From NCBI GenBank assembly GCA_033648345.1, contig GCA_033648345.1_4121.1: 64,000 nt of DNA; one strand, given 5' to 3'. The notes beneath the pieces were generated by a model that was not told the origin of the DNA, searched no databases, and was given only the letters and a program-made list of their open reading frames with translations. The number at the start of each line of letters is the position of its first letter. Position 1 is the first letter of the stretch. Positions 39,137-43,866 of the stretch are shown here, piece by piece. The translations under genes were made by a program, and so were the position numbers. Source of the stretch: a phage.

Positions 39137-39222
<86 letters not shown>

Positions 39223-39239: not shown

Positions 39240-39400
<161 letters not shown>

Positions 39401-39404
<4 letters not shown>

Positions 39405-39561
39405 CACATGAAGAATGGATGAATGACATTAATTTTAGATATTCGGGTATCGGTAAATGGCTAAAGTATCATTGGGAATTCATTTCAGAGCCACATCTGT
39501 ATGATAAACTTATCAACGATCCAGCATATGAAATGTACTTAATTGAACTACTGGTACGAAT

Positions 39562-39565
<4 letters not shown>
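39401..39565 (+). CDS. MTHEEW-family small protein (tandem copy 2)
   Basis: MTHEEWMNDINFRYSGIGKWLKYHWEFISEP...; ATGA overlap with copy 1. Confidence 0.4.
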
Positions 39566-39733
<168 letters not shown>

Positions 39734-39734
39734 G

Positions 39735-40188
<454 letters not shown>

Positions 40189-40216: not shown

Positions 40217-40456
40217 ATGGGTAAGTATTTTGTGAGTTATAGTTATAATGTATCACGAAAGATTCCACGTGGTGACGGAATGGGATGGTCTTATGATGCA
40301 TATACTTTAAATGAGTCATGTATCATCGAATTACAAGAAAAAGACCTTGACATTTTAAAAATCAAACAACATATTCTTGATGTTGAATTGGCACATCGTA
40401 CTGATACCTATCCAGATGTAAACAACATCAGCATCTTAGTACTAACCAAAGTATAA
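40217..40456 (+). CDS. hypothetical protein
   Basis: Start at MGKYFVS downstream of promoter copy B (ORF-track start 40187 falls inside the promoter). Confidence 0.4.
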   Translation: MGKYFVSYSYNVSRKIPRGDGMGWSYDAYTLNESCIIELQEKDLDILKIKQHILDVELAHRTDTYPDVNNISILVLTKV

Positions 40457-40534
40457 GATAAAAAGAACTTTACTAAATAATTCCACTGGAGATTAATATG
40501 TTTAAAGATGAACGTCCAGATTTGTAAAAAGTAC

Positions 40535-40563
40535 TTGAATAAATAATTCAGTACTGATATAAT
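40535..40563 (+). promoter_or_regulatory. early promoter driving candidate ncRNA
   Basis: TTGAAT, 17 nt, TATAAT; same ttcagtactg spacer motif. Confidence 0.5.
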
Positions 40564-40569
40564 GAATTC

Positions 40570-40910
40570 CACAATTAGACGTATATGGTGTAAGTTACGT
40601 CGATGTAATCCAGAACAAGATCTCTGGTACTCTAGGAAGTGGTGAATGTTAACCTAGACGGGTTTGATAATTGGACGATAGGCAATTATTACTTGACTAG
40701 CAGGTTTAAACTAGAGGTGACAGTCCTTCACCAAACTGGAAAACCGGATGGACTTTTATTTAAAAGGGTAAGGCGTGGAAATATGTTTACAGAAGTTGCT
40801 TTTAGTAGCCTGTACGCCCCACGTCAAGGTAGCCGAAAGGCAAGTTAAAACGGGTGGTTATAAAGCTGAATTAACAGCGGCGTTTAAAAGCGTCACCATC
40901 CATTTTTTTT
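40570..40910 (+). ncRNA. candidate structured noncoding RNA (about 340 nt), function unknown
   Basis: Promoter-proximal, ends at T8 run; several local hairpins (gacgta..tacgtc, ggtga..tcacc, gcc-GAAA-ggc); only ORF inside is an Arg-rich 69-codon frame. Confidence 0.3.
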
Positions 40911-40926
40911 AATTAAAGTTGGTGAT

Positions 40927-41455
<529 letters not shown>

Positions 41456-41648: not shown

Positions 41649-42173
<525 letters not shown>

Positions 42174-43770: not shown

Positions 43771-43849
<79 letters not shown>

Positions 43850-43866
43850 CAAAATAAAGGTACACT

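Follow-up and report, generated by a model that had tools for sequence, protein, structure and literature searches.

The closest described counterparts of the RNAs treated here are the species 1 and species 2 RNAs of phage T4 (rnaC and rnaD), small RNAs that lie in the transfer RNA (tRNA) cluster of a virulent phage, are co-oriented with the tRNA genes and abut them. They are matured by the tRNA-processing enzymes of the host and, to our knowledge, have remained without an assigned function since they became known in the 1970s. A second point of reference is given by the orphan structured non-coding RNAs (ncRNAs) raiA, ROOL and GOLLD, some of them phage-borne, which display a complex covarying fold and invariant junctions and are not known to have a function. 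Here, a stretch of 64,000 nucleotides (nt) of phage DNA (NCBI GenBank assembly GCA_033648345.1, contig GCA_033648345.1_4121.1; "the window" from here on) was examined at positions 40565-40910, plus strand, where an earlier note, made from the letters alone, had proposed a single stable RNA of about 340 nt analogous to those of T4. Based on the comparisons presented below, this part of the tRNA region of a 121Q/PBECO4-type jumbo coliphage is probably a transcription unit for stable RNAs, from which two independent structured RNAs, modules A and B, would be matured together with the tRNAs and no protein would be produced. The structural and family part of this explanation is highly probable.

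By blastn, the flagged stretch, flanks included, matches Escherichia phage BF17 at 99% identity, and 121Q, PBECO4 and about 30 further jumbo coliphages of the Asteriusvirus type at 96-99%. The locus sits in the tRNA region, with tRNA genes at 41338-41427 and 43777-43850 (ARAGORN, Rfam). Jumbo phages of Klebsiella of the RaK2/K64-1 type keep exactly 40566-40908, a 343-nt block comprising both modules, at about 81% identity and with nothing annotated there (blastn), and the blocks conserved in other phages stop nearly at the proposed RNA ends (about 40566 and, in RaK2-like phages, about 40908). Other phage groups share only the first ~187 nt, without module B. In RaK2 and in the metagenome contig L021 a complete promoter cassette is inserted between the two parts; on contig L020 module B follows a tRNA-Arg and has its own promoter; and the junction element of module B (B2) occurs alone in EJP2 and elsewhere. 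Since promoters split the two parts and the first occurs alone, between tRNAs, 40565-40753 is treated here as module A (about 190 nt) and 40768-40910 as module B. What had been claimed as one RNA of about 340 nt is in this way resolved by comparison into two separable modules, while the claim of a structured ncRNA locus within the tRNA region is borne out by covariation and by the tRNA-cluster context.

Copies of module A with 72-99% identity lie inside tRNA clusters in at least six lineages of phages, and on four metagenome contigs. The lineages are the 121Q-like and RaK2-like jumbo phages, the T4-like Bragavirus (PM2, Pm5461, SdyM_006 and Mm5, the latter infecting Morganella; 85-91% identity), two genera of T4-like Aeromonas phages (65, avDM6, AP1, CC2 and P19, with weaker matches), the T5-like Proteus phage 1 (85%) and Klebsiella phage KP13-16 (about 72%). 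The four contigs (L020 to L023), found by scanning metagenomes with a degenerate pattern, all carry tRNAs alongside the module, and on L022 two divergent copies flank a tRNA-Arg. Module A fills the gap between tRNA-Gly and tRNA-Asp in PM2, Pm5461 and SdyM_006, lies between tRNA-Leu and tRNA-Ser in both the T5-like phage and KP13-16, and between tRNA-Pro and tRNA-Thr in the Aeromonas phages. Its conserved 5' end (AAUUCCAC or variants) begins 0-1 nt past the encoded CCA of the upstream tRNA in eleven contexts (PM2, Pm5461, SdyM_006, the T5-like phage, KP13-16, four Aeromonas phages, one copy on L022 and that on L023), or eight if the four near-identical Aeromonas phages are counted once. Its orientation is always that of the neighbouring tRNAs, and membership of a tRNA cluster, co-orientation and adjacency to tRNAs were found for the window as well as for its relatives. 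No further copy of module A or of B2 was found within the window. Scans of IMG/VR for module A returned only isolates that had already been sequenced. In 5,426 genomes of Escherichia coli blastn gave no true match to either module, leaving mimicry of a host RNA unsupported, and two pattern scans of cellular genomes (185,579 species, one genome each; GTDB) yielded none and then eight chance matches, all rejected by the covariance model; neither module has a match there. On these comparisons, module A is a previously undescribed, cross-lineage and phage-restricted RNA family with strong covariation, which unrelated virulent phages appear to carry and exchange as a unit inside tRNA arrays.

The secondary structure of module A was derived by comparison. 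In an unfitted MAFFT alignment of 13 sequences RNAalifold recovered the helices Pa, Pc, Pd, Pe and Pf, with compensatory changes in 15 of 30 pairs; after the metagenome variants were added, seven hairpins and two pseudoknots were defined. In the window the hairpins are Pa (40578-83/40596-601), Pb (40610-14/40623-27), Pc (40631-36/40653-58), Pd (40666-73/40683-90, with the loop GGACGAUAGG), Pe (40691-95/40701-05), Pf (40716-20/40728-32, with a 7-nt loop CnnnCCU) and Pg (40736-39/40744-47), the last being lost in the Aeromonas members, and the module ends in an invariant GAUGG tail (40747-40751), for which a general complementary partner was sought and none found. The model R1 scores 143-222 bits on 19 members. 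In the alignment A7, whose fitting to the nested helices inflates the pair counts, 88.8% of cells are standard pairs; sliding the partners by 1-3 columns leaves 27-43%. Both sides have changed in 29 of the 50 pairs, and none of 500 shuffles reaches the observed covariation. The compensatory changes that a comparison of related phages was expected to reveal were thus found, in module B (see below) as in module A, above the slid controls. About 55 positions do not vary in any of the 16 sequences aligned, and most of them fall in the 3' half, within its loops and junctions, the invariant blocks being CGGG, the GACGAUA loop, UGAC-GCAG, AAA, GAGG, the CnnnCCU loop, AAAC and GAUGG. A role as a sponge for CsrA, suggested by five GGA motifs, was rejected, as these motifs are absent from the Aeromonas members.

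Of the two pseudoknots, PK2 (40697..40714) is of the H type and pairs CUAG in the loop of Pe (40697-40700) with CUAG at 40711-40714 across the linker UUAAA. All cells (100%) are paired, a count that owes nothing to fitting, since PK2 lies outside the covariance model. The change UA to AU is seen in six sequences, including two unrelated lineages (Aeromonas Ceceduovirus and contig L022), and AU to GC in the KP13-16 type. RNAalifold had instead paired the second CUAG with CUGG (40736-39), with apparent covariation; a U-U mismatch in both L022 copies breaks that helix, which was therefore dropped and replaced by PK2. The pairing PK1 (40566..40647) is tentative: it would join the 5' end (AUUCCAC, 40566-40572) to GUGGUGAAU (40639-40647) in the loop of Pc. 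Lineage-specific compensatory variants are found (CCAC/GUGG, GCAC/GUGC in Aeromonas, and CCUC/GAGG in KP13-16, where the register is shifted); 73.6% of cells pair, and sequence-by-sequence shuffles give no significance.

Module B (40768-40910) consists of a stem-loop (B1), a GAAA hairpin, a three-way junction (B2) and a U8 tract; its minimum free energy (MFE) and centroid folds agree (z = -2.5). A MAFFT alignment that had not been fitted has 98.4% of its cells paired, where slid controls give 28-50%, and 7 of 33 pairs show compensatory changes. B1 (40772..40825) is a three-tier stem-loop spanning 40772-40818 (GGCG/CGCC, 40772-75/40815-18; UACAG/CUGUA, 40788-92/40810-14; GUUGCU/AGUAGC, 40795-800/40804-09), and an alternative outer helix, GGCGUGG/CCACGUC, recruits 40819-40825 in place of CGCC. 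It is shared with the Kuravirus phages (XT18; 83% identity over 54 nt). On contig L020 one change in the 5' strand, C to U, is answered by G to A in both alternative partners, and in XT18 both alternative 3' partners likewise match an altered 5' strand. As both partners change with the 5' strand, two mutually exclusive helices seem to be maintained, and B1 may act as a switch. The GAAA tetraloop hairpin named in the earlier note is present at 40832-40841 (GCCGAAAGGC; GCC-GAAA-GGC) and is invariant in all five copies carrying it. B2 (40852..40901) has a closing stem GGGUGGU/ACCAUCC (40852-58/40895-901), the junction UAUAAA and two hairpins, GCUG/CAGC (40865-68/40875-78) and GGCG/CGUC (40879-82/40891-94), its 3' strand passing uninterrupted from hairpin 2 into the closing stem. 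Seven further copies were collected: the main copy of RaK2 and one upstream of its module A, one on L020, two on L021 (the main one and one after tRNA-Arg), one in EJP2 between tRNA-Ser and tRNA-Arg, and one on the IMG/VR contig L027, the only convincing new copy in a scan of IMG/VR with the B2 pattern that otherwise gave four chance matches in coding sequence. Their stems are compensated (GGAUGAU/AUUAUCC, GGAUAGU/ACUAUCC, UCUG/CAGA, ACUG/CAGU), with UAUAAA and AAUUGA fixed. The closing stem is followed by one A and then by the U8 tract announced in the earlier note (40903-40910), where RaK2-type copies have AAAUUUU. B2 with U8 is a probable intrinsic terminator to judge from its layout; a scan for consensus terminators made no call, the stem being branched.

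The cassette promoter, claimed with a -10 element at about 40558, is likewise there. It is of the sigma-70 type (40535..40563), with -35 TTGAAT at 40535-40540, a 17-nt spacer, TG at 40555-40556 and -10 TATAAT at 40558-40563 (extended, TGn), and is one copy of a repeated cassette (TTCAGTACTGnnnAAT; core TTCAGTACTG...AAT) found 16 times in the window, where 0.16 occurrences are expected by chance. Transcription is predicted to start at about 40570-71, that is, inside the conserved 5' strand of module A (40566-40572); on contig L020 the same cassette lies 5 nt further upstream, so that the whole module A RNA falls inside the transcript. Given this start, the full-length form in 121Q-type phages may require read-through from the promoter at 40157-40184, or else PK1 may be dispensable. 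Multiple local hairpins had also been claimed: the hairpins exist and their helices covary, whereas the folding energy of the whole region (347 nt) is ordinary on either strand (z = -1.6), for which reason the case rests on comparative evidence. Four Asteriusvirus relatives (G17, Sharanji, ECO103 4-12-1 and EC22.5-2) match the query over its first 41 nt only, which are the promoter cassette; within the genus, modules A and B are therefore accessory, some members having them and others not.

From this arrangement we infer expression, a processing route, stability and action in trans. The RNAs would be transcribed with the tRNAs or from cassette promoters of the tRNA type, and the host nucleases of tRNA maturation would release the modules from their neighbours. 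In the tRNA operons of E. coli, processing proceeds through RNase E, RNase P and 3' exonucleases; on this model RNase E would cleave within the A/U-rich junction CCA|AAUU and RNase P at the next tRNA, followed by 3' exonucleolytic trimming. The released modules would accumulate as folded RNAs, B2 with U8 would end and protect the transcript, and module A would bind, in trans, a host or universally phage-encoded factor of the tRNA, translation or RNA-processing sphere that would be common to its gamma-proteobacterial hosts. This last step is proposed tentatively; it is suggested by the fact that no phage protein gene is consistently adjacent to module A and that its conserved loops exceed what a spacer would need. 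Several points weigh against the explanation as a whole. The analysis found no partner, no target and no conserved protein gene alongside, which makes action in trans a guess by exclusion. The family is small, with about 8-9 distinct sequence types, and its spread by horizontal transfer was probably recent, so that independent substitutions are limited; the alignment A7 was, as stated, fitted; and support for PK1 and Pg is weak. With transcription starting at about 40570-71, the RNA would lack most of the conserved 5' strand (40566-72), and a search of the literature found no RNA-seq study of these phages.

Among the other explanations the one that survives best, although we do not regard it as probable, is that the modules act only in cis, as folding insulators, processing signals or terminators for the maturation of the tRNA and stable-RNA transcript, and are functionless once excised. 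They always lie in or beside tRNA arrays, abutting the CCA of the upstream tRNA; a U-tract follows most B2 copies and B2 ends operons; and the closing stem of B2 stacks on hairpin 2 like the acceptor and T arms of a tRNA, a possible minihelix substrate for RNase P to judge from its sequence. However, a pseudoknot, seven helices and about 55 invariant nucleotides, all maintained across six lineages, are not needed by a spacer or a signal, and most tRNA junctions in the same clusters have mere 2-12-nt spacers. In the window, on L020 and in one of the L022 copies, moreover, no tRNA stands directly upstream of module A, which is preceded by a promoter of its own or by a terminator-like hairpin.

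That the whole 340 nt forms one functional RNA, in which GGAUGG (40746-51) at the end of module A pairs with CCAUCC (40896-901) in module B, is quite unlikely. No promoter or terminator stands between the modules in the window, hence they are co-transcribed there; the MFE fold of the 347 nt does use this pairing; and in Kuravirus XT18, B1 adjoins an element with module A-like motifs. Against this, promoters separate the modules in RaK2 and on L021 and L020, and module A stands without module B in at least five lineages, which have no CCAUC partner within 260 nt downstream, so that the long-range pairing was rejected as a general feature. In addition, what the 3' strand of B2 covaries with is the 5' strand of B2 itself and not the tail of module A.

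Slightly weaker still is the proposal that module A is a catalytic or ligand-binding RNA, either a ribozyme cleaving at its own 5' end to free the upstream tRNA or an aptamer. Its size, the pseudoknot and the invariant purine-rich junctions (CGGG, GACGAUA, UGAC, GCAG, GAGG, AAAC, GAUGG) do resemble ribozymes and riboswitches more than base-pairing small RNAs, and the 0-nt junction with the tRNA CCA would suit self-cleavage. Yet no ribozyme or riboswitch of Rfam matches at E values up to 10, the order of the helices is unlike the HDV-like, hatchet, pistol and twister topologies, a tRNA freed by self-cleavage would end in a 2',3'-cyclic phosphate, unfavourable for aminoacylation, and the promoter-driven copies have nothing to cleave. 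Taken more broadly, it is possible and still improbable that module A is a new class of functional RNA with a pseudoknot, which virulent phages carry from genome to genome along with tRNA genes and which serves tRNA operons as a ribozyme or self-processing element or else is a decoy or scaffold that acts in trans by neutralising or hijacking a tRNA-acting host factor. Candidates for the factor that such a decoy or scaffold would bind are RNase P, RNase E, a defence nuclease directed at tRNAs and a modification enzyme.

Selection at the DNA level, in the form of selfish mobility (a target or cargo of homing endonucleases) or of decaying tRNA genes, is very improbable as the cause of the conservation. 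Phage families with no relation to one another share 85-91% identity here, which implies that transfer was horizontal and recent, genes for homing endonucleases are found close by (a segD-like gene by tRNA-Gly in SdyM_006 and an HNH-like open reading frame (ORF) at 41649-42173 in the window), and in KP13-16 a partial tRNA-Leu comes after module A. On the other side, compensatory double substitutions keep the RNA helices on one strand, showing selection on the RNA fold, the orientation is always that of the tRNAs, and neither ARAGORN nor the Rfam tRNA model finds a tRNA in module A or B. The ORF at 41649-42173 (plus strand, 174 amino acids) lies between tRNA genes and its translation shows, by eye, HNH/NUMOD-like motifs (NHKDGNKLNN...); it is probably a homing endonuclease, which would fit horizontal exchange of tRNA-cluster modules.

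The weakest alternative, that the 69-codon GTG ORF at 40639-40848 (plus strand) encodes a small protein, has hardly any likelihood left: the frame is open in the window, several deposited genomes annotate a "hypothetical protein" across it and one marginal PHROG match exists (E = 0.011, over 25 residues), but the frame is interrupted in every relative, among them RaK2 (longest open stretch 51 codons), L021 and all those with module A only (21-46 codons in the relatives other than RaK2), and the ORF bridges two elements that form separate transcription units elsewhere, straddling the A/B junction that in RaK2 is occupied by a promoter. A search of Pfam with its product gave no match, and the PHROG match was probably seeded by mis-annotated ORFs over the same DNA. 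As the earlier note had it, no convincing ribosome-binding site is present, the only candidate being an AGGA 1-2 nt before the start codon, a spacing unusable for a Shine-Dalgarno sequence; its description of an Arg-rich, low-complexity peptide was overstated (6 Arg in 69 residues, clustered near the C-terminus). Conservation at the protein level had been named among the observations that would speak against an RNA, and the comparative part of that evidence came out against coding, the frame not being conserved in relatives. These comparisons establish that the ORF is not a gene and that the region is non-coding.

The Kuravirus XT18 gap in which B1 is found (contig L006, 2140-2790) is a stretch of about 790 nt without an annotated gene, G+C-rich in its hairpins and a mosaic of pieces shared with different phage groups, which probably holds several more unannotated RNA genes. 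A 651-nt query from XT18 matched 241 phage records. Downstream of B1 (L006 2564-2639) lies a conserved two-hairpin element of about 75 nt, termed module C, which is the stretch behind the matches to Enquatrovirus (AL25), St11Ph5, a Klebsiella podophage and a temperate Klebsiella phage, among the matches listed. In N4-like AL25 (L041, ~695-775) it lies in the tRNA cluster, between tRNA-Thr and a "tRNA-Undet", and in the temperate Klebsiella phage (L042, 1495-1560) in an early intergenic region. Module C shares ordered motifs with the 3' half of module A, namely a hairpin with a GAC(G/A)AUA loop, UGAC, AAAAAC and AGAUGG; the model R1 does not detect it and Rfam has no match in XT18. These motifs point to a partner shared with module A, as a lead and no more, and if the ribozyme or decoy idea for module A were true, they would mark a wider superfamily recognising the same partner. 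A resemblance of module C to the put antiterminator RNAs of HK022 (putL and putR, two stem-loops close behind an early promoter) in size and in having two hairpins is also a lead only, and a put-like antiterminator (PMC9378689) was rejected after the whole early region of HK022 was compared, in sequence only, and no similarity was found. For module A a put-type RNA, considered on account of its motifs, was rejected too, since it often stands in mid-cluster and not beside a promoter.

Other elements were encountered near copies of the locus and in the window. On L020 (JACCDR011713278.1, minus strand) two non-coding units driven by cassette promoters flank module A at ~1135-1065 and ~775-605: one is tRNA-like, being closed by the 7-bp stem GCGGCAU/AUGCCGC and having the loop UUCGAUU, and the other, about 170 nt long, is an RNA that GGUGAGUAAC/GUUACUCACC closes. 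A group I intron (RF00028, 104 bits) lies at 2460-2692 of the RaK2-like contig L021, about 2 kb downstream of the RNA locus. In the window, Rfam calls a tRNA at 39137-39215 (plus strand; 32.6 bits against a gathering threshold of 29) where ARAGORN is silent; it has a 7-bp acceptor stem, the T-arm GGUUCGAGUCC and a CCA end, its D/anticodon region is odd, and it is possibly an aberrant or tRNA-like gene. Just upstream of the RNA locus, three tandem overlapping ORFs of 54 codons, each starting MTHEEWM (39240-39404, 39401-39565 and 39562-39726; 39240-39726, plus strand), look like a triplet of small paralogous genes, and the interval separating the preceding gene from the promoter of the RNA locus contains a mini-ORF of nine codons (MFKDERPDL; 40499-40528, plus strand), with a GGAG 7 nt before it.

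As to what these observations mean, the phage tRNA regions considered here consist of arrayed RNA genes that are modular and have a cassette promoter each, and some ORF calls in these regions should be removed; the family of module A is unannotated, or mis-annotated as a hypothetical protein, in more than 60 deposited genomes. It spans T4-like, T5-like, jumbo and other phages of Enterobacterales and Aeromonas, and phage-host pairs in E. coli, Proteus, Klebsiella and Aeromonas that can be cultured and are tractable genetically make the role of the non-tRNA RNAs of phage tRNA clusters testable.

The covariance search of Rfam proposed in the earlier note assigned neither module to a known family. 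Among the 4227 models of Rfam 15 none matched 40400-41050 at the gathering threshold, and at E values up to 10 there were three chance-level matches of 14-21 bits, against thresholds of 40-80; in six homologous loci nothing was found for module A, module B or the Kuravirus region at E values up to 10. ARAGORN finds no tRNA or tmRNA in 40565-40910. Searches of the literature by topic and by sequence string gave no prior description of module A or B. In PA5oct, a related jumbo phage, ncRNAs have been defined by RNA-seq (PMC7318152), and the abundant ones show no homology to either module.

Compared with known RNAs, B2 resembles the acceptor/T-arm stack of a tRNA, in that the 3' strand of its 7-bp closing stem continues without a break from a hairpin of 4-6 bp and is followed by an unpaired base and a U-tract, but it lacks the T-loop and D-loop consensus, an anticodon arm and CCA, and receives no tRNA call from ARAGORN or Rfam. 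As an intrinsic terminator it would be unusual for its branched stem and for the sequence conservation of the junction UAUAAA and the loop AAUUGA. Pe and PK2 together have the canonical layout of classical H-type pseudoknots such as those of preQ1-I aptamers and viral frameshift sites (a 5-bp stem 1, a 1-nt loop 1, a 4-bp stem 2 and an A-rich 5-nt loop 3, UUAAA). They differ in having no loop 2, no ligand-recognition nucleotide and no match to the PreQ1 model, and in being set in a far larger RNA that is neither a 5' untranslated region nor a coding frame.

In its complex covarying fold and invariant junctions module A is similar to the orphan ncRNAs named at the outset; compared with ROOL and GOLLD, it is smaller, is tied strictly to the tRNA arrays of virulent gamma-proteobacterial phages and does not occur in the cellular genomes searched. 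With the T4 species 1 and 2 RNAs the analogy drawn in the earlier note holds by position in a tRNA cluster and does not extend to homology, as the model R1 has no match in the T4 tRNA region, no likeness to rnaC or rnaD is seen by eye and T4 is absent from the blastn results. The T4 RNAs measure 119 and 139 nt and are tRNA-like, rnaD ending in ACCA and rnaC having a GGUUCGAAUCC T-arm, whereas module A, with about 190 nt, is pseudoknotted and has no tRNA-like arm or CCA. The family of module A is also larger and better conserved than that of species 1 and 2, with a well-defined pseudoknotted fold, and while the T4 RNAs are restricted to the relatives of T4, module A crosses at least six phage lineages.

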